A stretch of 17,027 bases of DNA. Source: a virus. Below are positions 1 to 17,027 of the stretch, piece after piece. Under the pieces are notes generated by a model. That model was not told the origin of the DNA and searched no databases. It saw nothing but the letters and a program-made list of their open reading frames with translations. Location: the IMG/VR virus record IMGVR_UViG_3300045988_062861, one strand, 5' to 3'. Numbering within the stretch: the stretch's first letter is position 1; each line of letters opens with the position of its first letter. A program made the translations under genes and the position numbers.

Positions 1-80
1 GCCCAGTAAAAAATAGACCCCCCTTGTCAGTTCACCCTTTTTCATAAAAACTACAACAAAATTCTGTGCAAATTGACAGC

Positions 81-109
81 TTGACAAACTGTCAAACGTG
101 TGCTATACT
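81..109 (+). promoter_or_regulatory. ITR promoter P1 (sigma-A consensus, inward-facing)
   Basis: TTGACA (81-86), 17-nt spacer, TGc-TATACT extended -10 (101-109). The -35 is part of a perfect inverted repeat, TTGACAaacTGTCAA (81-95). Confidence 0.7.
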
Positions 110-173
110 ATAGATACAAGGTAAGGAAAGGAGTCCAATACAGGATAACACCTTGAAAGGTGAAAACAAGTAC

Positions 174-202
174 TTGACAAACTACCAAACCTGTGATATC
201 AT
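174..202 (+). promoter_or_regulatory. ITR promoter P2 (sigma-A consensus, inward-facing)
   Basis: TTGACA (174-179), 17-nt spacer, TGa-TATCAT extended -10 (194-202). It lies 93 bp downstream of P1 and is about 80% identical to it over roughly 52 bp, including the shared initial transcribed block acaaggtaaggaaa. Confidence 0.7.
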
Positions 203-243
203 GTAGTTACAAGGTAAGGAAAACAGAATAGGAGGAAATAGTT

Positions 244-333
244 ATGAGAAAAGCCTGTCAGGTAGAAATCAATAAAAAGGCTGACGTAATTTGCGAGGAA
301 ATTTATAACCTCTACTCAGAAAAACAGATATGA
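244..333 (+). CDS. Small ITR ORF, 29 aa (MRKACQVEINKKADVICEEIYNLYSEKQI), hypothetical
   Basis: ATG at 244 preceded by ataGGAGGAaatagtt (SD 8 nt upstream), about 35 nt downstream of P2; TGA at 331-333. It is below the length cutoff of the supplied ORF track. Confidence 0.45.
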   Translation: MRKACQVEINKKADVICEEIYNLYSEKQI

Positions 334-446
334 ATACGATCATTGAAGTTATGAGCTCAGAGCATATCACAGAATTGCAGGGCGGCATGTTAGTATTATA
401 ACTTACATAGCTGTGCTATCGGCATAAACGGGCGGAAAGGAAAAGA

Positions 447-707
447 ATGAAATACAAGATTAAGCTTTACATCGGCGGACACATGTCAATGGTTACCTAT
501 CGCACGGACACTTTGCAAAACGTATTATCGTGCGCCAGAAAGTCAATCACACTGTTTTCAGAGTGCGACGAGAGAGTAAAAATTTGCATTCTTGACAATG
601 ACGGCAACGGTATTATGTCATACATTACTGGAAACAAACCTAAACCAGTATATACGGCTATCGACCATGTAAACAAGGAGCGAAAAACCTACTACACCGG
701 AGCATAG
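447..707 (+). CDS. ITR-encoded 86-aa hypothetical protein (left copy)
   Basis: ORF-track entry with an aaaggaaaag SD-like sequence before the ATG. It is the longest ORF in the ITR and is oriented with P1/P2. I recognise no motif in it. Confidence 0.65.
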   Translation: MKYKIKLYIGGHMSMVTYRTDTLQNVLSCARKSITLFSECDERVKICILDNDGNGIMSYITGNKPKPVYTAIDHVNKERKTYYTGA

Positions 708-729
708 TTCTTTAGAAAGGAGAAAAACT

Positions 730-828
730 TTGAAGATCAAACTTTTACGACTTTTACAGGTCTTAATAATCGTGTCATTGATTTACGATATTGTTGTATT
801 CAACTACACAGCAAATATTTTTGGTTAA
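730..828 (+). CDS. Small hydrophobic ITR ORF, 32 aa (TTG start; MKIKLLRLLQVLIIVSLIYDIVVFNYTANIFG)
   Basis: AAAGGAG at 718-724, then a 5-nt gap, then TTG at 730; TAA at 826-828. It has a basic N-terminus followed by one hydrophobic stretch. Its 3' half and stop lie inside the 95-bp repeat unit. Confidence 0.4.
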   Translation: MKIKLLRLLQVLIIVSLIYDIVVFNYTANIFG

Positions 829-874
829 TGCGGCTCGAGTTAGTCTAAACTAACTCATAACAAAATATTTCAAT
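780..874. repeat. Single copy of the 95-bp ITR repeat unit (left arm)
   Basis: gatttacgatattgttgtattcaactacacagcaaatatttttggttaatgcggctcgagttagtctaaactaactcataacaaaatatttcaat. It contains the hairpin GAGTTAGT-ctaa-ACTAACTC. Confidence 0.9.
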
Positions 875-908
875 TAATTGTGAATAATCACTTGACAAAA
901 ACAGTGTT

Positions 909-940
909 GCCCAGTAAAACATAGACCCCCCTTACCAGTT
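909..940 (+). other. Internal, degenerate copy of the genome terminus (fossil end)
   Basis: gcccagtaaaacatagaccccccttaccagtt matches bases 1-32 (gcccagtaaaaaatagaccccccttgtcagtt) at 29 of 32 positions. It begins at the first base after the ITR. Confidence 0.85.
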
Positions 941-943
941 GTC

Positions 944-986
944 AAGAAAAAAGTGCACCAGCACACCTATAAAAGGCATGCTGGTG
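944..986 (-). terminator. Rho-independent terminator of the late operon
   Basis: On the minus strand, 7 nt after the tail-fibre stop: CACCAGCA (986-979), 15-nt loop, TGCTGGTG (963-956), then cacUUUUUUcuug. Confidence 0.75.
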
Positions 987-992
987 TCATCT

Positions 993-3347
993 TTATACGT
1001 ATCCACAAGCACGGATTTTTTGTGCAAGCATTTTACCTAAAGCGGTGTATCCATTTGCGTTAAGATGTACTGAATCTGAACGTAACGATGAAGGCACTTC
1101 ACCTCTTCTCATTTCATCCGTATCTGTGCTTGTTGGCGTGAGGTTCATTATAGCCATACCGTACTTGTTAAGCATATTTCTTGTGTTAAAATAATGCACA
1201 CCGTATTTGCTAAGCATCTGTGATTCTTCGTCTGACATACTAGAGGCACTTCCAGTACTAAGACCCATTACGATATAGTTGTCGTTAATTTTACTAATCA
1301 TTGAGTCAATGATACTTAACCTCTCGGCTAGATCTGGGCCATTTTGTCCAACAAAAATAACTGTAATTTTACCCGTAATATCGCATCCGGAGAATTTGAC
1401 TGGTGTTTCTGCAAGTAACTTGTCATTATATCCCGTAATAGTGTACTTAGCATTCGGGTCACTTCCGCTTGTTTGTGAAATTGACAAGGTACATTTCACG
1501 CCGTTAATGTATATCGGATTAACGGAATTACTTCCCGTCCCTTGTCTTAATGGATTGCACGTAGTTCCGTAAATATCTTTTAATTCTGACAAAGAATATT
1601 CACTTACTGTGCCTGCCTTAAGAATAAGTGAATTACCACCCTGTCTACAAGCGATTGTGTTAGCATTTTCTCCGCCAACACCACAATTTTTGAAAGAAGT
1701 AATTCCTAATTCAGAAGCACAAACGCTAGGATAATTTGTTCCAGACCCTCCAGCTCCAGCTGTCAAGCTATCTCCCCAAAAGCAAAGGTCAGTTGTATAT
1801 TCAAAGTCATTAACAGTATGCCATAAGTCGTACAGTGTATTATCAGTGAATAGCATGAATTTAATATTAACAGTGTTTGGCACCTGTGAAATGTTATCAA
1901 TTCTTAATATAGCGGTTTTAATAACGTCAGAAGTTGAACCACCTTTAGGAAGTGTCATTTTGTTCACAGAGATTTTGCCAGGTTTAAAATCAATGGTACT
2001 GCCGTAGCATACACTAGCATTATTCCAACTCGCGTTATTCGATAGCCAGAGCGAAAGAGAGTATTTACCAGCAATTCCAGAATCTCTGGCATCAACCAAA
2101 TAATAGACATCTAGTGTATTAGTTTTTGGATTTACCATTGGAACAGTAAAAGTAGACGCAACGCCAACTACATTAGGGTTTGTGCCGCTTTCTCCCTTAT
2201 TATAGGCATCAAAAGAAATAAATGAAGTTCCATTTGCATCAGTTGTAATACCAGTTGAGGAGGAACCCTTATAGTGTACAGATGTACTAAACTGCTTACT
2301 ATAAGCAAAACCATCTTTCAATAGTCTATCACCAGTTACTTTAGAATCTGCCGCCGCACCATTAATTGTAAGCGTATTGTCTATCGCAGGAACACTATTC
2401 CATAAGTTGTACAGTGTATTATCAGTGAATAGCATGAATTTAATATTAACAGTGTTTGGCACCTGTGAAATGTTATCAATTCTTAATATAGCGGTTTTAA
2501 TAACGTCAGAAGTTGAACCACCTTTAGGAAGTGTCATTTTGTTCACAGAGATTTTGCCAGGTTTAAAATCAATGGTACTGCCGTAGCATACACTAGCATT
2601 ATTCCAACTCGCGTTATTCGATAGCCAGAGCGAAAGAGAGTATTTACCAGCAATTCCAGAATCTCTGGCATCAACCAAATAATAGACATCTAGTGTATTA
2701 GTTTTTGGATTTACCATTGGAACAGTAAAAGTAGACGCAACGCCAACTACATTAGGGTTTGTGCCGCTTTCTCCCTTATTATAGGCATCAAAAGAAATAA
2801 ATGAAGTTCCATTTACAGCAGTTGTAATACCACTTGAGGAGGAACCCTTATAGTGTACAGATGTACTAAACTGCTTACTATAAGCAAGACCGTCTTTTAA
2901 CAGTCTTTCACCAACCACTTTAGAATCTGCCGCCGCACCCTTGATGCTCAAACTTGTATCAATTACCGGGTTAGTCGGATTCGTGATATGTTTTGTTAGC
3001 CAGTTATTCACCTCGTCAATTACATCCGGCTTGATGATATTAAGCAAAGCACCTGACTCAGCCATTTCATCAAGTTTCTTGTCAATCTCTGGCTGAACGT
3101 CCAGATTTTCAAAGTACGTATTAACGTACTGCTGTAACTGGACATAAGCCGCATGAAGCTGTACAACATCTGTGTGAAGCGTATCTACATCATGCATTGT
3201 TTTATTGAGATAGTCAACTGTCTTGCAAAGAAGTTCCATATAACTCAGTGAGTCATCATACACAAGTGGCAGTACTTTCTGGCACCAGTAACGAAACGGT
3301 CTTAACTCAGTGTATTCACCCATATCAGGCGTGTAATTAGCATTCAT
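993..3347 (-). CDS. Tail fibre / appendage (receptor-binding) protein with duplicated central module and C-terminal SGNH/GDSL hydrolase domain
   Basis: It is the last gene of the late operon, the gp12 position in phi29. The start is moved to ATG 3347 (MNANYTPD...) because AAGAAAGGAG lies 6 nt upstream. The N-terminal anchor motif RPFRYWCQKVLPLVYDDSLSYMELL is followed by two ~193-aa repeats. SGNH blocks are readable: FWGDSLTAG (I), GVGGEN (II), VGQNGP (III), DSVHLN (V). Confidence 0.8.
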   Translation of the reverse strand: MNANYTPDMGEYTELRPFRYWCQKVLPLVYDDSLSYMELLCKTVDYLNKTMHDVDTLHTDVVQLHAAYVQLQQYVNTYFENLDVQPEIDKKLDEMAESGALLNIIKPDVIDEVNNWLTKHITNPTNPVIDTSLSIKGAAADSKVVGERLLKDGLAYSKQFSTSVHYKGSSSSGITTAVNGTSFISFDAYNKGESGTNPNVVGVASTFTVPMVNPKTNTLDVYYLVDARDSGIAGKYSLSLWLSNNASWNNASVCYGSTIDFKPGKISVNKMTLPKGGSTSDVIKTAILRIDNISQVPNTVNIKFMLFTDNTLYNLWNSVPAIDNTLTINGAAADSKVTGDRLLKDGFAYSKQFSTSVHYKGSSSTGITTDANGTSFISFDAYNKGESGTNPNVVGVASTFTVPMVNPKTNTLDVYYLVDARDSGIAGKYSLSLWLSNNASWNNASVCYGSTIDFKPGKISVNKMTLPKGGSTSDVIKTAILRIDNISQVPNTVNIKFMLFTDNTLYDLWHTVNDFEYTTDLCFWGDSLTAGAGGSGTNYPSVCASELGITSFKNCGVGGENANTIACRQGGNSLILKAGTVSEYSLSELKDIYGTTCNPLRQGTGSNSVNPIYINGVKCTLSISQTSGSDPNAKYTITGYNDKLLAETPVKFSGCDITGKITVIFVGQNGPDLAERLSIIDSMISKINDNYIVMGLSTGSASSMSDEESQMLSKYGVHYFNTRNMLNKYGMAIMNLTPTSTDTDEMRRGEVPSSLRSDSVHLNANGYTALGKMLAQKIRACGYV
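1821..2978. repeat. Intragenic tandem duplication, 2 x 579 bp (193 codons) inside the tail-fibre gene
   Basis: 1821-2399 versus 2400-2978. 1831-2235 is identical to 2410-2814 (405 bp by eye). The remainder of each copy is only partly similar and is clearly diverged beyond 2361/2940. Confidence 0.9.
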
Positions 3348-3361
3348 AGTATACTCCTTTC

Positions 3362-4150
3362 TTACCATAACAGGAAGAACAGATCTTTCAGTTCATCCAC
3401 AATCATTTGATCAATGTTCAGCATACTTTCTCGATACTCAATCAGCATTTTAGAATAAGATGTTCCGCTTCTCTTACCCTGTACGTGCTCCGAGTATTCT
3501 TTCAGTGAACTATAATTTCCAGTACTTTCAGAATCAGACGTTCCTGCATTAACCTGTGTAGCAGTGTTATCAAGCTTCTGAGTACCAGTATCAGCAGAAC
3601 TACCTTTATCTGTTACATTTCTAGCGTCAGTTAGATATGCACCAGTTTCAACACCAGTCAACGCACCTTGAGGTGTATCAGAAAATTTATTCCACTGATT
3701 GTTTTCGTCTGTGTGTTTCAGATTGTCAGTTCTTAGAGAACTAAGGTTATCAGTTCTCGTGTTGCTATCTTCGCCATGAAGTGTTGAACTGTTATTACCC
3801 TCGTCTTTCAGATTATGAGTAGTGTTTAAGTCAACATCATACAGAGGATTGAACTCAAGTGTTGCGCTTTTATATAACTGATTGTAGTATGGCATAATCA
3901 TGTTCATACGTTCAGTTAGCCACATCTTCCATATACCAACCGTTTCAGATGCAATCTCACGGAGGTAAAAGTGTTTCAGAATCTTGCAACACAGGACTTT
4001 TCGATACGTTTCATCATAGATAGGAAAATCACCGAAAATTTTGTTCCAGCTTTTTTCAATGATCGCATTAATGTTAGATGCTCCTTGACTCTCTGAATAT
4101 CCTGCTTCTGTTTCGCAGATGAATCTTACTTCGGTGGTGTATTTACTCAT
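3362..4150 (-). CDS. Lower collar protein (phi29 gp11 position)
   Basis: It sits directly downstream of the portal gene, as in phi29. The start is moved to ATG 4150 (MSKYTTEV...), which overlaps the portal stop (gATGAGTAA) with GGTGAG upstream. The call rests on synteny and size only. Confidence 0.6.
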   Translation of the reverse strand: MSKYTTEVRFICETEAGYSESQGASNINAIIEKSWNKIFGDFPIYDETYRKVLCCKILKHFYLREIASETVGIWKMWLTERMNMIMPYYNQLYKSATLEFNPLYDVDLNTTHNLKDEGNNSSTLHGEDSNTRTDNLSSLRTDNLKHTDENNQWNKFSDTPQGALTGVETGAYLTDARNVTDKGSSADTGTQKLDNTATQVNAGTSDSESTGNYSSLKEYSEHVQGKRSGTSYSKMLIEYRESMLNIDQMIVDELKDLFFLLW

Positions 4151-5039
4151 CAGTCTCACCATCCTCTCCGGTGTTATTCACAGAGTTATTCACATCTTCT
4201 ACTTCTGGAATCTGATAGTCCTGTCGATATTCAACCGTTATGTTTGTGCCAAACATCTGATTAATTTTATTTGCGGCAGTACGGCGGCTTTCCAGTCTGG
4301 AATATCTAGACGCTACAACTCCACCCTGATTTCGATTTACTTCATCCGTAATCATACGTTCTTTTTTCTGCGTGTTGATATTGCTGATACCTAGTCTTGT
4401 CAACGCTTCGTTCCAATACTGTGTTTTCAGTGCATAGATTTTATCAGCAACGAATGGCGCATTGGTAGTAACAGCTCTAAGCGCAGTTGGGTCAAGATCA
4501 TTGTCACCAAAAATTACAGGTGAATTACCGTCATACTCTTTGTACACGTTAAGCAAAGAAAGACGCTGTTTTTCTGTAGCGCGCACCAGAATTGGTGTTT
4601 TCTGTGCGTTTGCATTTACGTCAATGATTCGATCGAGATTGTACAGTCGTTTGGCATAAATCATGGAGTCGGCTACAGATGGTGTACGTAAAAAGTTATT
4701 GTAGATAATAACGCTGTCAGATTCTGATAAAGTTTTGTTATAGCCATTGTAACGTGAGTAAGCTGTTCTTCTAGTCGGGTATCCATACACATCAAAGTTA
4801 CCTGCTGGCAGACAAGATAAACATAACTGTGGTTGATTTTCCAGTTCTTCATCTTTGAACCAAACAGCCACCCCGGTTAAAAACAACTGCATTTCAAGAT
4901 AACGTACATCTATACTGTCTGGTACGTTTTGCCACTCAAACATGGAAACAGCTAGTTCAGACAGTACACGTAGGTACTGTCCATATGTAGCTGTATTACC
5001 TAAGAGTGACTCATCAAAATTTGTTTTTCTTTTCCCCAT
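4143..5039 (-). CDS. Portal / upper collar connector protein (phi29 gp10-like)
   Basis: The translation shows NANAQKTPILVRATEKQRLSLLNVYKEYDGNSPVIFG and KKERMITDEV, closely resembling phi29 gp10 [37 protein letters not shown] and KKERMVTDEV (recalled). It has an acidic C-terminus. The start is at ATG 5039 (AGGAG 8 nt upstream) rather than the track's TTG 5045. Confidence 0.88.
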   Translation of the reverse strand: MGKRKTNFDESLLGNTATYGQYLRVLSELAVSMFEWQNVPDSIDVRYLEMQLFLTGVAVWFKDEELENQPQLCLSCLPAGNFDVYGYPTRRTAYSRYNGYNKTLSESDSVIIYNNFLRTPSVADSMIYAKRLYNLDRIIDVNANAQKTPILVRATEKQRLSLLNVYKEYDGNSPVIFGDNDLDPTALRAVTTNAPFVADKIYALKTQYWNEALTRLGISNINTQKKERMITDEVNRNQGGVVASRYSRLESRRTAANKINQMFGTNITVEYRQDYQIPEVEDVNNSVNNTGEDGETDE

Positions 5040-5050
5040 TGTCAAGTCTC

Positions 5051-6625
5051 CTAGTTTGTTGGTCTGTTATCAAGTGAATAGTCACCGATCTCGTCACCGT
5101 TCCTCCACCATGTAATACCCTTATTGAATATGCTTACAATCTCTCTTGCATCATCGGATGGCAATGAACCAGTGAGAACACAAGAAACTGTTTTGATGAA
5201 AGTCCAATGAGTTCTAGCGTGTAAGTTAGGTGTCATCAGAGCATTCTGCGCATATCCAAACATGGTAAAGAAGTCATCAATCAGTTTAGCAAACGGTGCG
5301 CGAACTGTCTGGTGTTCAAAAGTAAATTGAACTTTACCCATCTGAGCGTTAAGAGAATCACATTCGATCTGTCCATGCGTCTGAGGTGGCGTATTTTCTA
5401 AATCCTGTTTCTTGCCCATAATAGCATAAGCTTGATTGAACAGATTTTGCTCACCCATAATTGCAGTTGTTGCGGCACTGTTTGAATTTCCATTCATAGC
5501 AGATGTTCCTACAGAAGCAACGTTTGTCATTGCACTTGCAAGCATGGCAGAGGTAACACTTCCTTTGTTCTGCGCCCACCACGCTTTCCATGCATCACCA
5601 GACCACGCAATGGTTGGAAAGTTTGAGAGTACAAGTCCACGGTCATAGTTTTTATCCATACCCATATAATTCATTGGATATAGTGTGACAGTTGGAGTTG
5701 TCACGATTGCGCCAGCCAGTTTAAAATTTACAAGCGAGTGAGATTCCTCAGAGTATTTGAACTGCTCCCATCTGTACTCGGCACGACTGCCTGCATTGTT
5801 TGATAGTACAAGTTTGCAGAATGGATAAGAAAAGAGTTTGCGATTCTTTACGTCATGTCCATCTATTTGAGTTAGATTGTTGTAAACAGGAACGGTTTTT
5901 TCGTGCAACCCACCTGCTGAGCTTTGAGAAGAACCAGCTTCGTCAAGAAACGATGGATATTGAAACGCTGATACGAGAGCATCTTCTTTTCCATTGTCAA
6001 TCCAATTCTTAATTTCCGTTGTTATTGATGCAGAATCTAAAGCACGAATGCCAGACTCAAGACCGAGTCCGCAAAAGATTTTGCCACGTGTTTTCGGGTC
6101 GGCCACAGTTCCATCAGCTCGCTGTGTATAATAAAGACCGATTGACATTGAGTTTAAGTCAACCACAGTCTTTTTCTCGACTGTGTAATCACCTAAATCG
6201 AGATTTTCTGGAACGAGATTTTCAAAATATCCATCACTCTCACTATGCTGTCTCTCAACAAAGCACTGTCCGAGTGTAAAGTCAAACAGCCAAGTCTGCA
6301 ATACATCAATCTGATATGTTACAATAGATGTAATATTGTTCACATACTCGATGGAAGTAATAAATGCATAGAACCATTTGTTTCCATAAGCTGTGTTTTG
6401 GAACATCATGTAGTTACAATCGTAGATTTCATCAGCCAACACACCTACTTTCATGGTATTACGTGAGTGACGCTGATAGGTGTTCTTTGTGAAAGCACGT
6501 TTCTGTTTACTGATAAAGTAGTTGGACTGCTTTGCTTCGGAGTCAAAGTAGATCGTGTGATCGTAGGACGGCTCAAGCGGAACGTTGTGTAATAAACGTA
6601 TAGTTGTGTTTGGAGAAATATACAT
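5051..6625 (-). CDS. Tail knob / distal tail tube protein (phi29 gp9-like)
   Basis: YMMFQNTAYGNKWFYAFITSIEYVNNITSIVTYQIDVLQTWLFD matches phi29 gp9 YIMFQNADYGNKWFYAFVTELEFKN...FEIDVLQTWMFD (recalled). The start is at ATG 6625 (MYISPNTT; AAGGAG 6 nt upstream) rather than the track's TTG 6643. Confidence 0.88.
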   Translation of the reverse strand: MYISPNTTIRLLHNVPLEPSYDHTIYFDSEAKQSNYFISKQKRAFTKNTYQRHSRNTMKVGVLADEIYDCNYMMFQNTAYGNKWFYAFITSIEYVNNITSIVTYQIDVLQTWLFDFTLGQCFVERQHSESDGYFENLVPENLDLGDYTVEKKTVVDLNSMSIGLYYTQRADGTVADPKTRGKIFCGLGLESGIRALDSASITTEIKNWIDNGKEDALVSAFQYPSFLDEAGSSQSSAGGLHEKTVPVYNNLTQIDGHDVKNRKLFSYPFCKLVLSNNAGSRAEYRWEQFKYSEESHSLVNFKLAGAIVTTPTVTLYPMNYMGMDKNYDRGLVLSNFPTIAWSGDAWKAWWAQNKGSVTSAMLASAMTNVASVGTSAMNGNSNSAATTAIMGEQNLFNQAYAIMGKKQDLENTPPQTHGQIECDSLNAQMGKVQFTFEHQTVRAPFAKLIDDFFTMFGYAQNALMTPNLHARTHWTFIKTVSCVLTGSLPSDDAREIVSIFNKGITWWRNGDEIGDYSLDNRPTN

Positions 6626-6644
6626 AAACTGCTCCTTTTTCAAG

Positions 6645-6675
6645 ACGCTACCTATCTATTACAGATAGGTAGCGT
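6645..6675 (-). terminator. 13-bp-stem hairpin immediately after the capsid gene (partial terminator or mRNA stabiliser)
   Basis: acGCTACCTATCT-attac-AGATAGGTAGCgt lies between the capsid stop (6686) and the tail knob start. The trailing sequence gucuug is only weakly U-rich, so read-through is expected. Confidence 0.45.
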
Positions 6676-6685
6676 ATAATTAAAA

Positions 6686-8098: not shown

Positions 8099-8110
8099 TT
8101 CTAAATCCTC

Positions 8111-8398
8111 CTATTCTGTCTTAAACAGACTTTCATATGTTAATGATTTCGGCTCTGGTTCGTCACCGCCTTGATCTTGTTCCGGGTCAGCCTTACCGCT
8201 AAAGCGGTCAGTGTAACGTTTCCGCCATGCTTTGTCGTTTTCCTCATACTTTGTTTTCCAATCTTCACCAGACCTTTCATTCAGATCGGTTAACGTATCG
8301 GAAACATCTTCCAGCATAGCAAGCTGTGTATCGTCTGGTGACTCACCAAAAGAAGCTTTCAGTTCGTCAATAATTTCCTGTCTTGTTCTTACTGCCAT
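8111..8398 (-). CDS. Scaffolding protein (phi29 gp7 position), 95 aa
   Basis: A small, acidic, helix-prone protein directly upstream of the capsid gene. The start is at ATG 8398 (MAVRTRQEII...), with AAGGAGAA 6 nt upstream. The track's 8437 start is a TTG with no SD. Confidence 0.6.
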   Translation of the reverse strand: MAVRTRQEIIDELKASFGESPDDTQLAMLEDVSDTLTDLNERSGEDWKTKYEENDKAWRKRYTDRFSGKADPEQDQGGDEPEPKSLTYESLFKTE

Positions 8399-8409
8399 AA
8401 TTGTTCTCC

Positions 8410-10138: not shown

Positions 10139-10337
10139 CTTTGGCGTTGTTTACACCTCCTAAATGCACACACAGGTTATTAATTGCCAGCGTATTTGCT
10201 TCGACGCTTTTACAAAGTTCTTCCATCTCTGCTTTGTGAGCTTCTTTTTCTCTAATCATATACCAGAAAAGAGCACCACAACACACGATTGGAAAACCGA
10301 GCGACCCGATAAGCTGTGTGACGGTTGTTACATCCAT
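10134..10337 (-). CDS. Holin, BhlA/UviB-like (67 aa)
   Basis: One N-terminal TM segment (VTQLIGSLGFPIVCCGALFWYMI) is followed by a charged helical tail. It lies directly upstream of the lysin. The start is at ATG 10337 (AAGAGAGG 8 nt upstream) rather than the track's GTG 10346. Confidence 0.65.
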   Translation of the reverse strand: MDVTTVTQLIGSLGFPIVCCGALFWYMIREKEAHKAEMEELCKSVEANTLAINNLCVHLGGVNNAKD

Positions 10338-10372
10338 TTTCTTCACCTCTCTTTCGTAATTTAATCATAACA

Positions 10373-10401
10373 CTTAGGCTTGATTATGTCAAGCTTTTAT
10401 G
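10373..10401 (-). promoter_or_regulatory. Late-operon promoter (sigma-A consensus)
   Basis: On the minus strand: TTGACA (10401-10396), 17-nt spacer, TGt-TATGAT (-10 at 10378-10373), about 30 nt upstream of the holin ATG. Confidence 0.7.
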
Positions 10402-10417
10402 TTATAATATTTTTAGA
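10389..10417 (+). promoter_or_regulatory. Promoter of the packaging ATPase gene
   Basis: TTGATT (10389-94), 17-nt spacer, TGt-TATAAT (-10 at 10412-17), about 45 nt upstream of ATG 10464. Its spacer contains the -35 of the divergent late promoter. Confidence 0.7.
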
Positions 10418-10463
10418 ATCAAAAAGTTCATGATTCAAATAATTGGAAAGGAAGAATGTTTGA

Positions 10464-11501
10464 ATGTCAAAGTATTACGACGGAACGAAGCTTCTTTCGC
10501 TCAAAGACCTTGACGGACAACGACCGGAGATTTATATGGTCACAACAAACCGAACAGGCGGTAAGACTACTTATTTTGGACGATATTCTGTTCGACGTTT
10601 TATAAACTTCAATGAAAAGTTCGCACTACTCTATAGGTATAACTACGAACTGGACAACGTGTCTGACAAATTCTTTAAAGACTTGAAAACTCTGTTCTTT
10701 CCTAGTATGGAAATGACAAGTAAGAGACTTGCTCACGGAATATTTCATGAGTTATATCTGAATGACCGTTCCTGTGGATACGCTATTACATTAAATAGTG
10801 CCGATCAGCTTAAAAGATATTCGCATTTATTTTCTGACGTTGACCGCATTTTATTCGATGAGTTTCAGTCGGAGACAAACCATTATTGTGATAAAGAAGT
10901 AAATAAGTTCCAGAGCATTCACACTTCTATTGCTCGTGGACAGGGAAAACAGACTCGTTATGTTCCTGTATTCATGATGTCAAATCCCGTAACTCTATTA
11001 AATCCATACTACAGTGCTATGAAAATCGGAAGTAGATTACAGTCTAATACTAAATTCCTACGCGGAACTGGATGGGTATTGGAACAAGGTTATGTTGACA
11101 GTGCGGCGAAAGCAATGAAGCAATCTGGTTTTACTAAAGCTTTTGCTGATGATGATTACATGAAGTATTCTTCCGAAGCTGTATATCTGAATGACAATTA
11201 CTCTTTTGTTGAAACCATGCAAGGAAAATGTAAGTATGTTTGCACACTTCGTTATATGGGTAAAGAGTATGGCATTAAGGAATACGTAGAAAAAGGTGTG
11301 GTGTATGTCGATGACAAACCTGACTTAACTTATCCATACAAAATCACAGTTACAACCGACGATCATCAGATCAACTACTTGATGTTACAGAGACACGATA
11401 TGTTCATCATGAATATGCGTTTTCTGTTCAGCAAGGGTGCGTTCCGGTTCAAGAATCTGGAATGCAAAGAAGCAACGCTGGCGGCATTGTCGTACAGATA
11501 A
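10464..11501 (+). CDS. DNA encapsidation ATPase (phi29 gp16-like)
   Basis: Walker A TNRTGGKTT and Walker B RILFDEFQSE are present. VFMMSNPVTLLNPYY, TVTTDDHQINYLML and GAFRFKN parallel gp16 TIVFDEFIRE, CICLSNAVSVVNPYF, TLTTDDLNENMMLI and GYLRFDN (recalled). Confidence 0.88.
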   Translation: MSKYYDGTKLLSLKDLDGQRPEIYMVTTNRTGGKTTYFGRYSVRRFINFNEKFALLYRYNYELDNVSDKFFKDLKTLFFPSMEMTSKRLAHGIFHELYLNDRSCGYAITLNSADQLKRYSHLFSDVDRILFDEFQSETNHYCDKEVNKFQSIHTSIARGQGKQTRYVPVFMMSNPVTLLNPYYSAMKIGSRLQSNTKFLRGTGWVLEQGYVDSAAKAMKQSGFTKAFADDDYMKYSSEAVYLNDNYSFVETMQGKCKYVCTLRYMGKEYGIKEYVEKGVVYVDDKPDLTYPYKITVTTDDHQINYLMLQRHDMFIMNMRFLFSKGAFRFKNLECKEATLAALSYR

Positions 11502-11623
11502 TTATGGTATCTACCATTGTTTCATATCATGATAGGTATGGACGCCCAGTTGAAACTATACTGCCTTACTTATTTACTGCTAGGCAAGCAGGCATGATGC
11601 GTTCATTGGTTAAAGATATATGT

Positions 11624-11668
11624 AAGAAGCGGGGATAACTTACCTAGTAAGTTCCCCGCTTCTTTTTT
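11624..11668. terminator. Terminator hairpin between the convergent ATPase and early transcription units
   Basis: aaGAAGCGGGGA-taacttacctagtaagt-TCCCCGCTTCtt is followed by a T-run on the plus strand. On the minus strand it starts right at the stop of the 77-aa ORF, but the trailing U-tract there is weaker. Confidence 0.75.
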
Positions 11669-11900
11669 AATTACTCTTGAACAGACCTTTCTGGTATACA
11701 CGGATGACAAGCCACCCTCTTAATTTGTCTACCGACATACTCCAGATCAGATATTTTTCTGGTTTCAGTTCGTCGTAGTATCGTATCATTTTTTCACATC
11801 TTCCTTTGAAGATTTCTTTTCCGTTATCGCAGTCTGAAACATCAATAACCATGCAGTAAACAGTAGGTGATATATAGAATCTAAGTTCTTCTAAAGTCAT
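11667..11900 (-). CDS. Hypothetical 77-aa protein, last gene of the early operon
   Basis: ATG at 11900 with GGAGGT 8 nt upstream. I recognise no motif. Confidence 0.55.
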   Translation of the reverse strand: MTLEELRFYISPTVYCMVIDVSDCDNGKEIFKGRCEKMIRYYDELKPEKYLIWSMSVDKLRGWLVIRVYQKGLFKSN

Positions 11901-11972
11901 CACTTTGTACCTCCATCACATTCAATATTTCTGTAATCTCTTACAGATACAAGATTGCCTTTAAATTTTTTC

Positions 11973-13958
11973 TCACCTCATTTTATAGGTTGTTTCACAG
12001 AGCAACACGCCGCCGGGAATACGCTTTGGCATCAGCTTTCCCGGAACAGTCAATCCATAAGTAAAATCAGTTAAGTCTCTGTGAATAGGCTTGTTAGTTT
12101 CATCGAATAAGAAATATTTCTCTTCCTCTTTCCAGTCATCTGGTTTTCCTTGCTTATCTTCCATACTTCTGATGAACAGGTCTTTACACTTTCTAGGCAT
12201 GCCAGCACATTTTACATTATAATAAGGTTCAACTTTCTCACCAACCCATTCGTTGTCTTTCAACTCAAGATCTTCTTCGACTACGTGTTCAATGTATGTT
12301 TTCTGCCGTGTGAAAATAGCACTATCCCATTTACTTTCCAGTTTCCAGCAACAAAATGCTGTGTTGTGTACTTTAATTCCCTGTACTTTTTCTGGTTTCA
12401 AATTGCAATGAATGCTATCTGTATCGGCATAGATAAAACCTGCCTTGCCTACACCATGATAGTTCGCTTGTGCCGCTCTGATCGTAAAGTTACGCGCATA
12501 ACTTGTGATTGCAGAACCGATCGGTATGTAGCCGGGTTGTTTGTCATTCGCTTCTACGCTACGAAATCCTATTGAGTTGTCATCTTTCAGATATGCTACT
12601 TTGAATGAACTGTCCGTGCTACTTGCGAACTTACCGTACAGATTGTTCAAGAAAAGCTTTGCTAACTGACGCTTTGCTCCCTTACTGTTCATTTTAATCT
12701 CCTTGTACTTGTCAATATAGCCGTCAAACAAACCGATCTTTTTCTCAAAATAACAACCGTCTAATATTTGAAAATCCTCTACGTCATAGTGTTCTAAGAA
12801 AAGATTGTAATCTGTCATTGTTAAGGTCAACTCTACAGTTGTTGGAACTTTCTTCATGTTACCATCATAGATGTATCTATGGTATTGACCATTGAGGTAT
12901 ACATCTGAGGTTTCCAGTGCTTCTGTTCCCCTGTACAGAGATGAACCTTTGATCTGGATGAAAGGTAACTTATCTTTCTTGAGATAGAAACGTGTTCGAA
13001 TACGAACGAAGAAATACTTTTCCTGCACATCGTCTGGAATGCCGTTTTGAAAGAATACAGGTAGTCCTACAGGGTAATAGTTACCAGACTCAGAGTGCAT
13101 CATGGAGGGGTACAATGAATTTACGTCAGCAGTTACGCCATTACCATACGGAATACCCGTCTTGCCTTTTACAGCATAACACCAGCCGCCTTTGTATGAC
13201 TTTTTAACATACTCGCCAGCATTAGAAACGCCATATATACTCTTGTCGATCTTGAATTCGTAGAGGTTTGGAAACATCTGTTCCCACTCATATACCGTTT
13301 CATGCTCAAATATGTTTTTATATTCTTCCATGCAACACGAGCCGATCGTAAGCTTGTTATGTCCCTCTGCGAACATGAACTCGATTGCTTCTTTTATGAC
13401 AAGAACGTCGTTCTTAATATACTCGATCTCTTCCGCTGTGATTTCACAACCAGCATATCGCAAGCCTTTGTATTCCATTTCAAGCTTACGGTGCTTTAAC
13501 TTAAACGATTCACCTATTGTCTTGACAGAAAATGGTAACAGCTTTAGTGAGTCACGTAACTCAATGAACTTTCCATTGCCCAATCGTATGGTGATTGAAT
13601 ACCACTGACCTTTGTCACTGATAGAATACTTGAAAGATCGAAAGTTCATATCTTTCTCTTTTAACCAACTTACGCTGTACTGTTCTGACGTATTGACGAT
13701 GAAAGCTTGTTGATAACCTTGTTTGATTAAGTAATCTATCCAGAAAGAACCATCAAATTTTAAGTTATGAAAATAGCAGATTATGTTACACTTGTAGGAT
13801 GCAAGATGTTTAAGACAATCTCCGATGCTATGCGACAAGGTGACTGTCTCTGTGTTTAACTCTACTGTAGCCGCCGCCCACACTTCGGTATCAGTTTGAC
13901 CAGCGTATACGGTCGTTTCAAAATCTCCTACAAAGTAGCGATATTTCCGTTTTCTCAA
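11973..13958 (-). CDS. Protein-primed family-B DNA polymerase (phi29 gp2-like)
   Basis: Motifs readable in the translation: ExoI FVGDFETT, ExoII FHNLKFDGSF, ExoIII YIKNDVLVIKEA, motif A DVNSLYPSMM, motif B KLFLNNLYGKFA, motif C YADTDSIH and KxY RQKTYIE. The only start upstream of ExoI is TTG 13958, 2 nt after the terminal-protein stop, which implies translational coupling. Confidence 0.97.
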   Translation of the reverse strand: MRKRKYRYFVGDFETTVYAGQTDTEVWAAATVELNTETVTLSHSIGDCLKHLASYKCNIICYFHNLKFDGSFWIDYLIKQGYQQAFIVNTSEQYSVSWLKEKDMNFRSFKYSISDKGQWYSITIRLGNGKFIELRDSLKLLPFSVKTIGESFKLKHRKLEMEYKGLRYAGCEITAEEIEYIKNDVLVIKEAIEFMFAEGHNKLTIGSCCMEEYKNIFEHETVYEWEQMFPNLYEFKIDKSIYGVSNAGEYVKKSYKGGWCYAVKGKTGIPYGNGVTADVNSLYPSMMHSESGNYYPVGLPVFFQNGIPDDVQEKYFFVRIRTRFYLKKDKLPFIQIKGSSLYRGTEALETSDVYLNGQYHRYIYDGNMKKVPTTVELTLTMTDYNLFLEHYDVEDFQILDGCYFEKKIGLFDGYIDKYKEIKMNSKGAKRQLAKLFLNNLYGKFASSTDSSFKVAYLKDDNSIGFRSVEANDKQPGYIPIGSAITSYARNFTIRAAQANYHGVGKAGFIYADTDSIHCNLKPEKVQGIKVHNTAFCCWKLESKWDSAIFTRQKTYIEHVVEEDLELKDNEWVGEKVEPYYNVKCAGMPRKCKDLFIRSMEDKQGKPDDWKEEEKYFLFDETNKPIHRDLTDFTYGLTVPGKLMPKRIPGGVLLCETTYKMR

Positions 13959-13960
13959 AG

Positions 13961-14818
13961 TTAATAGTCACTGTCCATCATATCGTCTAAATCTTCGAAA
14001 GAACGCATAGCAGATTCAGACAATGCAAAACCAGAAATATTACTTAAAAGAGCAACTATATGCTGAGCGGATGCCCACACTAAATTAGCGTCGGAATCGT
14101 AGTGAATAACGCCTAGCCATTTCTGAATATCATCCCATTGTTTTGACAACTCTTGACCGACTTTGTTCTTTCCAACTTCTGTAACGTTAAAAGATTGCTG
14201 TAGTTCTTTCGGCAACGTTTTTATTATCCCATACCCTATATCTGCCACAACTTCATCTAACGTCGCTAAAATTTCATCCAGAGCTCTGTTAGCTGTTTCA
14301 GCTACATTCGGACTTCTTCGTACTCTTTTACCTGTAACAGAAGTGTAATAATATACATCCATGGTAGAAATTATTTCTTTTAACTTGTCAACTAAATCGT
14401 TGAAAGCTTCTGCATAAGCCAGCACTGGCTCGTCTGTTACAGGTGTTTTAGTTCCGTCTGTGCTAGTCCAGAACCTCTGTTCTGCTTCTTTCTTTTCTTT
14501 TCTTGTTTTAGCTGCTGCCTTTGCTCTTAACTGACGCTCAAGTTTTAAACCCTCTTTACCAGAAACGATTTCACCAAATGTAGCTTCGCCACCATAAGAA
14601 GCTTTTGAATACAACTCCTCTTTCGTGAGTTTTTTCAACTTTCGAATACTGGCTTCGGTTTTACGCTTCGGAATAGATGGTACAATAGATTCTGGAAAGC
14701 TATATCCACGCTTTTCCGCTCTTCTAACGAATGACTTAACACGATTTCGCTCTTTTGCGTATGCCTTGTTGATAGCTTGCTGTTTTGCTGTTTGTCCCTT
14801 TTTTGTTTTCTTTGCCAC
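13961..14818 (-). CDS. Terminal protein (replication primer), putative
   Basis: 285 aa, immediately upstream of and coupled to the polymerase gene, as phi29 gene 3 is to gene 2. It has a very basic N-terminal third and an acidic C-terminus. GTG start with GAGAGG 8 nt upstream. The call rests on position, size and composition. Confidence 0.6.
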   Translation of the reverse strand: MAKKTKKGQTAKQQAINKAYAKERNRVKSFVRRAEKRGYSFPESIVPSIPKRKTEASIRKLKKLTKEELYSKASYGGEATFGEIVSGKEGLKLERQLRAKAAAKTRKEKKEAEQRFWTSTDGTKTPVTDEPVLAYAEAFNDLVDKLKEIISTMDVYYYTSVTGKRVRRSPNVAETANRALDEILATLDEVVADIGYGIIKTLPKELQQSFNVTEVGKNKVGQELSKQWDDIQKWLGVIHYDSDANLVWASAQHIVALLSNISGFALSESAMRSFEDLDDMMDSDY

Positions 14819-14844
14819 TGTTTTTACCTCTCTTTACTATTGAT

Positions 14845-14884
14845 ACAAGAAAAGGAGGTATCAAACCTCCCTTTCTTGTTTTTT
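14845..14884. terminator. Intra-operon terminator / attenuator between the SSB-like and terminal-protein genes
   Basis: ACAAGAAAAGGAGGT-atcaa-ACCTCCCTTTCTTGT forms a 15-bp stem with one mismatch. On the minus strand the GC core GGGAGGU/ACCUCC is followed by UUUUCUUGU. On the plus strand the full stem is followed by TTTTT. Confidence 0.6.
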
Positions 14885-14888
14885 GCAC

Positions 14889-15242
14889 TTAGTGCTGTAC
14901 ACTGTTATAGTCTAAGCGGCAGTCGATAAAGTCTCGTCCTGCTTTCGTCTTGCCAGACTCTTTAATAATTGCATACTCTTCTTCGCCAAACACATCATGA
15001 ATACGTTCCAGTGATTTACGAAATGTTGCCGACTGGAATGCATATACCTTTCCGCTGGTATCCATGATTGCCGTAATCTCGGCAATAGTACCGTCTTCTT
15101 TTTCGTCCTCGTAGGAACACCAAACTGATACGGGAATTGATGTTCCGTCCGGAACATCTTTCATTGATTCTGCACCTTTATCTACCGTAAGCATATACTG
15201 TTCAATTTTTGTAAGTTCTTTGCTTGCTTTTAATACTTTCAT
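14889..15242 (-). CDS. Single-stranded DNA-binding protein, phi29 p5-like (putative)
   Basis: 117 aa in the gene-5 position. VPDGTSIPVSVWCSY...EITAIMDTSGKVYAFQS...SGKTKAGRDFIDCRL resembles p5 LPDGTIIEANAIAQY...VTTIFAADGSLYSAIS...GTSSKGNVFFSLQL (recalled). AAGGAG SD. Confidence 0.5.
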   Translation of the reverse strand: MKVLKASKELTKIEQYMLTVDKGAESMKDVPDGTSIPVSVWCSYEDEKEDGTIAEITAIMDTSGKVYAFQSATFRKSLERIHDVFGEEEYAIIKESGKTKAGRDFIDCRLDYNSVQH

Positions 15243-15273
15243 TTTTTGTTTTCTCCTTTTTCTTGTTTTTTAT

Positions 15274-15301
15274 GGTGACAGGTGTGGAAAGTCCTGTCAC
15301 C
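15274..15301. other. Intergenic stem-loop between the p6-like and SSB-like genes
   Basis: GGTGACAGG-10 nt-CCTGTCACC. There is no U-tract 3' of it on either strand, so it is not a canonical terminator. It may be an RNA processing or stability element. Confidence 0.4.
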
Positions 15302-15359
15302 TGTTTAAAGACTCTGCTTTCTTGCACGTATGGTTGAATTTACTTTTTATAACCTGCTG

Positions 15360-15641
15360 TTAGTTACGTTTCGGAAGTGGCTCTAACTCTGCCGCATGAG
15401 CGATAAAGTCAGACTCTTTCATACCGTATCTTTTCTCGAACGGCTCTACAGCCAGGATTTTAACGATTTTGAAATCTTCTGTATCATGCTCGTTACGAAC
15501 CTTTTTCAGAAGTTTTTCATCGTTGGTATGCTGACCTCCGATCTCGTAAGTTACATTGCTCGGTTCACAACTTACAGTGTCCATAGCAAGGACTGTTACT
15601 TTTGTACCGAGGACGGTACGAGTTACCATTGATTCTCTCAT
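15360..15641 (-). CDS. Early dsDNA-binding protein, phi29 p6-like (putative)
   Basis: It is the first gene of the early operon, 93 aa. VTRTVLGTKVTVLAMD...EKLLKKVRNEH...KIVKILAVEPFEKRYGMKESDFIAHA follows the pattern of p6 ITKTTVNVAKMVMVD...EQAQWRMKRKY...VQVVSVEPNTEVYELPVEKFLEVA (recalled). GGAGG lies 9 nt upstream. Confidence 0.5.
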   Translation of the reverse strand: MRESMVTRTVLGTKVTVLAMDTVSCEPSNVTYEIGGQHTNDEKLLKKVRNEHDTEDFKIVKILAVEPFEKRYGMKESDFIAHAAELEPLPKRN

Positions 15642-15680
15642 TTCCGCTTTCCTCCTTTTCTTGTATTTTTGTTGTTTCGG

Positions 15681-15816
15681 AAATTATTTTACCAGACGTC
15701 AGAACTCGTCTGGAAGAGCGACCGCGGTGATGAACCGCGTTAAGTCGGCTTGCCGCTCAAGAGGTGGGCGGTTGGCACGCCGCCCTAACAGTGTTGTAAG
15801 AACTATCTCTCTTACT
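15681..15816 (-). promoter_or_regulatory. Structured, G+C-rich 5' leader of the early operon (candidate regulatory RNA or ncRNA)
   Basis: Minus-strand hairpins: GUAAGA/UCUUAC at the predicted 5' end (15815-15796); GGGCGG-8 nt-CCGCCC (15785-15766); GAGCG...CGCUC (15758-54 / 15720-16) enclosing CGCGG-uucauca-CCGCG (15739-23); CCAGACG-8 nt-CGUCUGG (15713-15692), followed by uaaaauaauuu. Confidence 0.5.
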
Positions 15817-15822
15817 GTATTT

Positions 15823-15851
15823 ATTATACCTCTTAACACTGTTTTTGTCAA
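15823..15851 (-). promoter_or_regulatory. Early-operon promoter (perfect TTGACA-17-TATAAT)
   Basis: On the minus strand: TTGACA (15851-15846), 17-nt spacer, TATAAT (15828-15823). The near-palindrome GTGAATAATCAC (15863-15852) abuts the -35. The ITR boundary (15835) lies inside the spacer. Confidence 0.75.
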
Positions 15852-15868
15852 GTGATTATTCACAATTA

Positions 15869-16248
15869 ATTGAAATATTTTGTTATGAGTTAGTTTAGAC
15901 TAACTCGAGCCGCATTAACCAAAAATATTTGCTGTGTAGTTGAATACAACAATATCGTAAATCATTGAAATATTTTGTTATGAGTTAGTTTAGACTAACT
16001 CGAGCCGCATTAACCAAAAATATTTGCTGTGTAGTTGAATACAACAATATCGTAAATCATTGAAATATTTTGTTATGAGTTAGTTTAGACTAACTCGAGC
16101 CGCATTAACCAAAAATATTTGCTGTGTAGTTGAATACAACAATATCGTAAATCATTGAAATATTTTGTTATGAGTTAGTTTAGACTAACTCGAGCCGCAT
16201 TAACCAAAAATATTTGCTGTGTAGTTGAATACAACAATATCGTAAATC
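15869..16248. repeat. Tandem array of four head-to-tail 95-bp units (right arm)
   Basis: Units at 15869-15963, 15964-16058, 16059-16153 and 16154-16248 appear identical by eye. Each carries the 8-bp-stem palindrome gagttagt-ttag-actaactc. Confidence 0.92.
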
Positions 16249-16298
16249 AATGACACGATTATTAAGACCTGTAAAAGTCGTAAAAGTTTGATCTTCAA
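16200..16298 (-). CDS. Right-arm copy of the 32-aa hydrophobic ORF
   Basis: Mirror of 730-828. It ends in the outermost (4th) copy of the 95-bp array, so the product is the same. Confidence 0.4.
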   Translation of the reverse strand: MKIKLLRLLQVLIIVSLIYDIVVFNYTANIFG

Positions 16299-16320
16299 AG
16301 TTTTTCTCCTTTCTAAAGAA

Positions 16321-16581
16321 CTATGCTCCGGTGTAGTAGGTTTTTCGCTCCTTGTTTACATGGTCGATAGCCGTATATACTGGTTTAGGTTTGTTTCCAG
16401 TAATGTATGACATAATACCGTTGCCGTCATTGTCAAGAATGCAAATTTTTACTCTCTCGTCGCACTCTGAAAACAGTGTGATTGACTTTCTGGCGCACGA
16501 TAATACGTTTTGCAAAGTGTCCGTGCGATAGGTAACCATTGACATGTGTCCGCCGATGTAAAGCTTAATCTTGTATTTCAT
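16321..16581 (-). CDS. ITR-encoded 86-aa hypothetical protein (right copy, identical)
   Basis: The ORF-track translation is identical to that of 447-707. Confidence 0.65.
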   Translation of the reverse strand: MKYKIKLYIGGHMSMVTYRTDTLQNVLSCARKSITLFSECDERVKICILDNDGNGIMSYITGNKPKPVYTAIDHVNKERKTYYTGA

Positions 16582-16694
16582 TCTTTTCCTTTCCGCCCGT
16601 TTATGCCGATAGCACAGCTATGTAAGTTATAATACTAACATGCCGCCCTGCAATTCTGTGATATGCTCTGAGCTCATAACTTCAATGATCGTAT

Positions 16695-16784
16695 TCATAT
16701 CTGTTTTTCTGAGTAGAGGTTATAAATTTCCTCGCAAATTACGTCAGCCTTTTTATTGATTTCTACCTGACAGGCTTTTCTCAT
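16695..16784 (-). CDS. Right-arm copy of the 29-aa ITR ORF
   Basis: Mirror of 244-333; cat at 16782-84 is the reverse complement of ATG. Confidence 0.45.
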   Translation of the reverse strand: MRKACQVEINKKADVICEEIYNLYSEKQI

Positions 16785-16825
16785 AACTATTTCCTCCTAT
16801 TCTGTTTTCCTTACCTTGTAACTAC

Positions 16826-16854
16826 ATGATATCACAGGTTTGGTAGTTTGTCAA
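16826..16854 (-). promoter_or_regulatory. ITR promoter P2, right-arm copy
   Basis: Mirror image of 174-202. Confidence 0.7.
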
Positions 16855-16918
16855 GTACTTGTTTTCACCTTTCAAGGTGTTATCCTGTATTGGACTCCTT
16901 TCCTTACCTTGTATCTAT

Positions 16919-16947
16919 AGTATAGCACACGTTTGACAGTTTGTCAA
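16919..16947 (-). promoter_or_regulatory. ITR promoter P1, right-arm copy
   Basis: Mirror image of 81-109 (coordinate = 17028 - x). agtata at 16919-24 is the reverse complement of TATACT. Confidence 0.7.
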
Positions 16948-17027
16948 GCTGTCAATTTGCACAGAATTTTGTTGTAGTTTTTATGAAAAAGGGTGAACTG
17001 ACAAGGGGGGTCTATTTTTTACTGGGC

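Follow-up and report, generated by a model that had tools for sequence, protein, structure and literature searches.

Genome organization and the terminal repeats

The stretch of DNA analysed in this work is the IMG/VR viral record IMGVR_UViG_3300045988_062861 (17,027 nt, referred to at its full length as the window), in which the gene set of a phi29-like, protein-primed podophage is enclosed between two kilobase-scale inverted terminal repeats (ITRs), and it is the origin of these long repeats that concerns us here. The minus strand carries all the long open reading frames (ORFs) save one, the gp16-type packaging ATPase (Table 1). A previous examination made without database searches (the sequence-only reading) had taken the window for a whole linear genome of this type, and this was borne out, the genome being whole or nearly so and its gene set confirmed with Pfam and PHROG. 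The structural and packaging set comprises PF05894, PF25622, PF05352, PF16838, and PF20934, together with phrog_2150, 2006, 2038, 5472, and 2248, and the family-B DNA polymerase (PolB) gave full-length tblastn matches to the polymerases of phi29, Nf, and B103 (34–36%). Overall, we consider it probable, and hold with good confidence, that the window holds nearly all of the linear genome of a phi29-like podophage from the human gut, that its kilobase ITR is real, and that this repeat arose by a recent, lineage-specific terminal duplication.

The two ends are inverted copies of each other, as had been proposed with lengths of 908 and 1,193 bp. Positions 1–879 are 100% complementary to 16149–17027 over 879 nt, and a second inverted match (775–908 against 15835–15968, 99%) takes the homology of the left arm to 908; a perfect repeat of this length does not come about by chance. 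The right arm is 285 bp longer than the left one because a 95-bp unit is tandemly repeated there, with ca. 4 copies, compared to ca. 1.4 copies in the left arm (from 775) and in relatives. This unit consists of the 3′ end of a small membrane-protein ORF plus a hairpin (GAGTTAG-TCTAAA-CTAACTC). Since short-read contigs (L008/L009/L168) break inside the array, the copy number of the unit and the asymmetry of the arms are uncertain.

At the nucleotide level, a megablast with the complete window found no match among 50,697 phage records, so that relatives could be reached through proteins only. The closest annotated or cultured phages are Clostridium phages CS229P1-3, with a PolB 59.8% identical. 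We searched IMG/VR with PolB and the lower-collar protein, rebuilding 13 contigs, and added whole contigs via capsid proteins; querying with the terminal motif ACCCCCCTTRYCAGTT yielded nothing beyond chance matches and contigs already collected. In this way uncultured close relatives from the human gut were obtained in IMG/VR, ENA, and Logan that have 85–98% DNA identity with the window and share its termini. Related phage genomes of 15–18 kb also sit whole in GTDB metagenome-assembled genome bins (L185–L204) of unrelated taxa (Muribaculaceae, Prevotella, Bacteroidaceae, Lachnospiraceae, Saccharimonadales, and Gastranaerophilales); these are probably binning errors, and the bins are thus uninformative on the host.

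It is in the comparison with the close relatives that the history of the left arm becomes evident. Seven complete or near-complete ones have imperfect ITRs of only 27–35 bp with two internal mismatches, and carry the early cassette and its 86-aa gene once, at the right end. Inside the left arm of the window, directly next to position 908, lies a second terminus-like sequence, 91% identical to the present one and in the same orientation (Table 1). The left end of two relatives (034823 and L169) is this very sequence followed by the same downstream hairpin, while five others (053285, L179, L173, L180, and L184) have the same left terminal motif followed by different downstream sequence. As the left end of the relatives corresponds to the window from 909 onward, the ancestral genome ran from there to the right end, and positions 1–908 are an addition on its outside. 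This piece has 100% identity with the right arm of its own genome vs. 77–97% with the right arms of the relatives, which identifies it as a self-copy, and the old left terminus still being present as a fossil indicates that the symmetry of the arms stems from a recent duplication.

Two contigs help to fix the physical ends of the molecule. Contig 049624 starts with TTTGCCCAGT, and contig 008466 has an Illumina adapter (…GTGCTCTTCCGATCT) joined directly to TTTGCCCAGT; taken together, they place the physical end at 5′-TTTGCCCAG, the window being probably short of three T at each end, as judged from these contig ends. Initiation by sliding back needs a reiterated terminal triplet (PMC6266182), and the T triplet of 5′-TTTGCCCAG fits such a terminal reiteration, the TTT itself being absent from the window. 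Untrimmed Illumina adapter occupies the first 24–30 nt of both IMGVR_UViG_3300045988_008466 (L015/L061) and …_047558 (L016). That of 008466, fused exactly to TTTGCCCAG, is database contamination, yet it marks a physical DNA end, and true termini can in this manner be fixed from leftover adapter at the ends of contigs.

Table 1. Features located in the window, in order of position, with the mirrored copy where there is one.
Feature	Position	Strand	Remarks
Left ITR arm	1–908	+	derived arm, copied in inverted form from the right (early) end; relatives lack it on their left
Early promoter P1	81–109	+	TTGACA-17-TATACT with TG; 11/12; mirror 16919–16947 (−)
Early promoter P2	174–202	+	TTGACA-17-TATCAT with TG; 11/12; mirror 16826–16854 (−)
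29-aa ORF	244–333	+	N-terminal stump of the 109-aa early gene of relatives; mirror 16695–16784 (−)
23-aa ORF	330–401	+	C-terminal stump of the 97-aa early gene of relatives; mirror 16627–16698 (−)
86-aa early gene	447–707	+	intact, conserved in the clade; second copy 16321–16581 (−)
32-aa TTG ORF	730–828	+	C-terminal part of the 59-aa membrane protein of relatives, runs into the 95-bp unit; mirror 16200–16298 (−)
Duplication junction	907–908	+	TT, 2-nt microhomology
Fossil of the ancestral left terminus	909–940	+	GCCCAGTAAAACATAGACCCCCCTTACCAGTT; 91% identical to the present terminus 1–32, same orientation
Terminator hairpin	956–986	−	13-bp stem; between fossil terminus and tail-fibre gene; conserved at the left end of relatives
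Late block	993–10346	−	holin, endolysin, gp13-like lysozyme, scaffold candidate, major capsid protein, gp9, connector, lower collar, tail fibre
Tail fibre	993–3368	−	SGNH/GDSL-like C-terminus; phrog_28673
Lower collar	3362–4162	−	phrog_3225, phrog_5472
Connector	4143–5045	−	PF05352
gp9 tail knob	5051–6643	−	PF16838, PF20934
Major capsid protein (Phi29_MCP)	6686–8098	−	PF25622
gp13-like lysozyme	8410–9465	−	PF18013
Holin	10134–10346	−	phrog_4898
gp16-type packaging ATPase	10464–11501	+	PF05894; sole plus-strand gene outside the left arm
Protein-primed family-B DNA polymerase (PolB)	11973–13958	−	661 aa; PF03175, E = 1.8e-43; phrog_1907, E = 2.4e-135
Terminal-protein candidate	13961–14818	−	285 aa; from position adjoining PolB and charge pattern
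phi29-type SSB	14889–15242	−	117 aa; PF17427, 25.3 bits vs. cut-off 25
p6-like double-stranded DNA-binding protein	15360–15641	−	93 aa; phrog_6370, E = 2.7e-5
Conserved structured RNA	15680–15815	−	ca. 130 nt; between P3 and the p6-like gene; z = −2.9
Promoter P3	15823–15851	−	TTGACA-17-TATAAT; 12/12; −35 inside the ITR, −10 outside
Right ITR arm	15835–17027	−	source copy, 1,193 bp; adjoins the early operon without a break, which holds for all relatives too
95-bp tandem array	15869–16253	.	TRF: 4.1 copies, 99% matches

The two consensus promoters announced for each arm are indeed there; P1 and P2 rank among the six best promoter sites of the window, with an extended −10 TG, and lie in a duplicated 50-nt promoter module. 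A third one, P3, is usable at one end only, since the right arm ends between its −35 and its −10 and the copy in the left arm is left without a usable −10. The arms do hold ORFs, as the sequence-only reading had it, although they number four rather than three (29, 23, 86, and 32 aa), the 32-aa TTG one perhaps having been left uncounted, and only the 86-aa one is intact and conserved. Alignment with relatives L169 and L001 reveals a deletion of 739 bp in the window at 312/313, and it is because of this deletion that the 29- and 23-aa ORFs are gene stumps, the former corresponding to the first 23 residues of the 109-aa gene (MRKxCQVEINKKxDxICEEIYNL in common) up to the breakpoint.

The 86-aa gene is found in a single copy in each short-ITR relative examined. 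Its product has 37 homologues, all confined to the clade (66–95% identity, 24 invariant columns), and a confident AF2 model (pLDDT 93.6). Searches against PHROG and Pfam gave no match, nor did structure searches of PDB and BFVD at E ≤ 0.001, and a likeness to Dmd of T4 was rejected as noise (prob 0.77, E = 0.4). A role of this protein in DNA entry or anti-defence is, at this point, pure speculation.

Junctions and the formation of the long repeat

A perfect ITR of 981 bp, made from the same (right) end, is present in a second genome, IMGVR_UViG_3300045988_056329 (17,010 nt). This genome is a close relative of the window (PolB 98%, lower-collar protein 96%, unique region ca. 94–97% nucleotide identity), and its left arm reaches ca. 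150 nt deeper into the right-end sequence, through P3 and the structured RNA. The right arm reads …GACGTCTG-GTAAAAAAT-TCCGAAAC and the left arm …GACGTCTG-GTAAAAAAT-AACACCCCCCTTACCAGTT, so that at this junction 9 nt (GTAAAAAAT) are common to the internal right-arm site and to positions 9–17 of the old terminus. In the window the join is …CAGTG-TT-GCCCAG, with the TT common to the right-arm site (…CAGTGTT followed by AAGAGG) and to TTTGCCCAG. On the evidence of these sequences, 056329 represents a second, independent duplication event at a different junction.

The two junctions resemble a known side product of this kind of polymerase. During multiple displacement amplification (MDA) with phi29 polymerase, more than 85% of the chimeras are inverted joins, in which a 3′ end primes on the displaced 5′ strand of its own molecule through 2–21 nt of complementarity (PMC1855051). 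Both junctions (2 and 9 nt; two cases only) match this geometry and fall in this range, although the MDA chimeras are an in vitro side reaction on random templates while the window presents a heritable architecture found in bulk metagenomes. One likely explanation, and as inferred here the most likely mechanism for what the junction sequences show, is template switching by the strand-displacing polymerase. The nascent strand started at the right origin would displace the parental strand that has the right terminus as its 5′ end; on reaching the template's left end, the nascent 3′ end (…CTGGGCAA, or …ATTTTTTAC in 056329) could pair with the TT or the GTAAAAAAT on the displaced strand, and the annealed end would then be extended up to the 5′ end of that strand. 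A strand extended in this way ends as an exact copy of the right origin, and so the next protein-primed round would fix the new ITR. The piece copied contains the origin, P1 and P2, the two early-gene stumps, the 86-aa gene, the truncated membrane-protein gene, one 95-bp unit, and the −35 of P3. Both origins would be identical now, with the early promoters and the 86-aa gene present in two copies, and transcription from the left arm would run toward the convergent tail-fibre gene and meet the hairpin in front of it.

The long repeat is supported by several assemblies of human-gut samples in which the same phage was located by exact-protein look-ups. An 872-nt SPAdes contig (ERZ1314563) is the window from 3 to 874 and has a coverage of 5.10, while two contigs from the unique region of the same phage in the same assembly have 2.79 and 2.78; the resulting ratio of 1.83 is close to the twofold coverage that had been predicted for the repeat. 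A MEGAHIT k127 contig of 15,928 nt (L168/L011; ERZ919513, run ERR414271) is colinear with the window from 89 to 16016 and therefore runs across the whole left arm as well as the 908/909 junction. Between this contig and the window there are 28 differences, 25 of them within the internal repeat of the tail-fibre gene, and these make it count as a separate assembly. Contigs from several samples end within a few to ca. 50 nt of position 1 (L006 at 3, L003 at 21, and L001 at ca. 48), and none among those of other assemblies reads past it. The perfect repeat, the contig spanning the junction, and the ca. 1.8-fold coverage speak for a genuine kilobase ITR.

Several points weigh against this interpretation or parts of it. 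Coverage and end evidence were drawn from assembled contigs and not from reads, the assemblies that support the junction may go back to samples of a single project that are close to each other (ERR414271/ERR414272, PRJEB5224), and the exact junction strings are absent from IMG/VR and JGI metagenome contigs, which leaves a small residual chance of an artefact. The 2-nt microhomology of the window is by itself weak evidence for a mechanism; the copy number of the 95-bp array, and with it the asymmetry of 908 vs. 1,193 bp, may be an assembly estimate; and the perfect identity of the arms could stem from continuing homogenisation instead of recency. The terminal-protein gene was called by position only and stays a candidate. 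As to the artefact itself, the left arm might be an in vitro chimera (from MDA or library ligation) or an assembler error that joined the inverted right end to the true left terminus. MDA chimeras do share the inverted geometry and the range of microhomology of our junctions. Nonetheless, we regard this as very improbable, because a k = 127 contig that was assembled from bulk faecal DNA and differs from the window elsewhere contains the junction, because an independent SPAdes assembly gives the repeat its raised coverage, and because a chimera formed at random would be present in a minority of molecules and would not come out of an assembly as the sole path. A de Bruijn misjoin through the short ancestral ITR was also considered and rejected: the ancestral termini share k-mers of at most 13 nt around their mismatches and both point outward, so that the graph cannot join them. 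Granting a real repeat, its sequence would fit equally well with microhomology-mediated illegitimate recombination or end joining between two antiparallel, co-replicating genomes, carried out by host or phage functions with no template switch of the polymerase, a route that accounts for the product and for both the 2- and the 9-nt microhomologies. We consider it unlikely, given that ends capped by a terminal protein, as established for phi29-type genomes, are poor substrates for end joining, that the junction of the window retains the old terminus save for at most one base, which fits a polymerase nearing the end of its template better than a random break, and that the inverted intramolecular geometry is the signature of switching by phi29-type polymerases.

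Template switching leaves aside why the duplicated state is kept, and here two selective accounts have to be weighed. The sequence-only reading saw in the arms a designed symmetric cassette, by which either end entering the cell first would express the same early genes, with their ORFs acting in internalisation or anti-defence. Each arm does offer two inward, near-consensus promoters followed by the conserved 86-aa gene, and the independent gain of this arrangement by two lineages could mean an advantage. This design was however not supported, as the seven close relatives keep the cassette at one end only and the fossil terminus marks the present state as young; moreover, three of the four ORFs are stumps, P3 is broken in the left arm, transcripts from this arm meet a convergent late gene, and the 86-aa protein has no detectable link to known entry or anti-defence proteins in PHROG, Pfam, PDB, or BFVD. 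It appears to us quite improbable. The other account is compatible with the duplication history and adds a selective cause to it: the duplication, together with the 285-bp tandem expansion, would refill a genome shortened by deletion up to the optimum for capsid filling or ejection. Both long-ITR genomes have suffered independent deletions in the early region (positions 379–1117 of L169 for the window and 171–1010 for 056329). Without their duplications they would measure ca. 15.8 and ca. 16.1 kb, respectively, below all seven relatives (16.57–18.1 kb), whereas their actual lengths of 17,027 and 17,010 bp are near those of relatives with 17,002, 17,020, and 17,099 bp. On the other hand, the sample is very small, too small to conclude from, genome lengths in the clade span 1.5 kb, which speaks against a tight optimum, the deletion may have come before or after the duplication, and a packaging optimum for this clade is conjectural. 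We regard length compensation as possible, if leaning to the doubtful side. More tentative still, and in our opinion not likely as it stands, is the generalization that template switching, by duplicating an end, repeatedly and quickly gives rise to long ITRs, which are then kept by refilling deletion-shortened genomes to packaging length.

Structured RNA and other features of the genome

The region between P3 and the p6-like gene holds a structured RNA that is far more conserved than its flanks (relatives are ca. 75–97% identical) and has 25 predicted pairs, five of them with compensatory changes. In 056329 it falls inside the ITR. This RNA could be a candidate packaging RNA (pRNA) that would serve the gp16-type motor, or else form the 5′ leader of the replication operon; an Rfam search at E ≤ 1 found no match to pRNA in the window and none of any kind for the 15680–15815 RNA. 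Between the p6-like and SSB genes there is a match resembling a PreQ1 riboswitch (15257–15309, minus strand) with 23.5 bits vs. a gathering threshold of 39 (E = 0.5), which we rejected as sub-threshold and most likely due to chance. A tRNA search of the window found none.

The terminal-protein candidate stops 2 nt ahead of PolB, its N-terminal half being basic and its C-terminal tail acidic. Searches with it against PHROG, Pfam, and PDB folds (Foldseek) gave no match; its structure model is helical (pLDDT 72.7). The assignment is one of position and charge.

Three observations concern the late genes and their control. The start codon of the endolysin has been lost (ATG to ACG at 10145–10147, minus strand, upstream of ORF 9458–9883), the start region reading AGGAGG…AACAATGCC in relatives vs. 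AACAACGCC in the window. The protein has 228–234 aa in relatives; in the window the frame is open, and its first canonical start gives the C-terminal 141 aa, excluding the N-terminus of the amidase. Contig L168, an independent one, shows ACG here as well. The tail-fibre gene contains a direct repeat (1795–2094 and 2374–2673; 300 nt, 96%, with a spacing of 579 bp) that results in two domain copies of ca. 193 aa, a region that is either polymorphic or resolved differently between assemblies. Finally, two promoter-like sites stand back to back, one at 10392–10364 (minus strand; 11/12 with TG) that precedes the holin and late genes and another at 10380–10408 (plus strand; 10/12) before the ATPase, and a hairpin (10376–10396) overlaps both. 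The stretch 10364–10408 thus has the look of a compact region of divergent control serving the one plus-strand gene.

Comparison with other protein-primed and linear replicons

Every protein-primed genome has its replication origins in its ITRs, be it that of a phi29-like phage, a tectivirus, an adenovirus, a linear plasmid, or a polinton. ITR lengths go from 6 bp to kilobases, and to our knowledge there is no agreed account of how the long ones originate. Within the phi29-like group of Salasmaviridae and allied families, ITRs of 6–16 bp are described for Bacillus phages (PMC6266182) and of 25–30 bp for Clostridium perfringens podophages (PMC3362512). More distant gut relatives recovered as whole contigs have 22–28, 103, or 141 bp, and the annotated records of Cp-1 (NC_001825) and asccphi28 (NC_010363) give 236 and 577 bp, the latter with promoters and without coding sequences (CDS). 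The window (908–1,193 bp) and 056329 (981 bp) have the longest ITRs among the ca. 25 phi29-like genomes compared, that of the window exceeding the few hundred bp given in the sequence-only reading for characterised relatives, and they are the only two of these in which an intact gene lies in the repeat with a fossil terminus adjoining it. No fossil terminus was found beside the ITRs of asccphi28, Cp-1, or the two gut relatives with 103 and 141 bp.

The nearest likeness in size is asccphi28, a protein-primed podophage of Lactococcus of ca. 18.8 kb, with a long, near-perfect ITR (583–609 bp by our alignment) and promoters and terminators in each arm. It differs in having an ITR of ca. 0.6 the length of that of the window, no annotated CDS in it, and another gene order, and it is not close kin. 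The Streptococcus phage Cp-1 has promoter elements in its ITR, with a boundary that leaves the −35 of a promoter inside the repeat and its −10 outside, as in the right arm of the window. Its ITR is however ca. four times shorter and geneless, and both arms keep a working −10 (ca. 215–250 and the mirrored right end). The common placement of the boundary may be a coincidence, or promoter regions may be favoured switch sites. Both phages fall outside the top PolB matches and their gene order differs, which does not bear out a relatedness of the window to the type of asccphi28 or Cp-1; its long ITR arose inside a short-ITR clade. CS229P1-3 (OP172772-4, host Clostridium_Q symbiosum) agree with the window in gene order and strand layout, with the ATPase on the opposite strand, and differ in that no ITR is found at the deposited ends of the CS229P1 record.

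Genomes such as these have practical consequences for the mining of metagenomes. Assemblers usually break them at the repeat, and many contigs of the clade end at ca. 14–15 kb, while completeness callers based on ITRs will class them as ordinary. They also offer a mechanism that is directly testable, as two close natural genomes show the event itself, with its fossil terminus, its microhomology junction, and short-ITR sisters. If the route proposed above is true, these two gut phages would be natural intermediates and a model for the long ITRs of asccphi28, Cp-1, adenoviruses, linear plasmids, and polintons.

Growth of ITRs by terminal duplication or transposition is found in poxvirus variants, in the repair and extension of adenovirus ITRs, and in the linear plasmids and chromosomes of Streptomyces, where one end is copied to the other, terminal genes become diploid, and the arms are kept identical. 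Those replicons differ from the window in the chemistry of their ends (e.g., the hairpins of poxviruses), in size, or in that the process is driven by recombination. We know of no natural case of terminal duplication in a phi29-like phage, nor of one that keeps the old terminus buried. What is new here is the natural growth of an ITR by terminal duplication in a protein-primed phage, seen twice and with the old end preserved. The long ITR is not a new kind of biological system; it extends the known continuum of lengths that goes from the few base pairs of phi29-like phages of Bacillus, through Cp-1 and asccphi28, to the kilobase arms described in this work.

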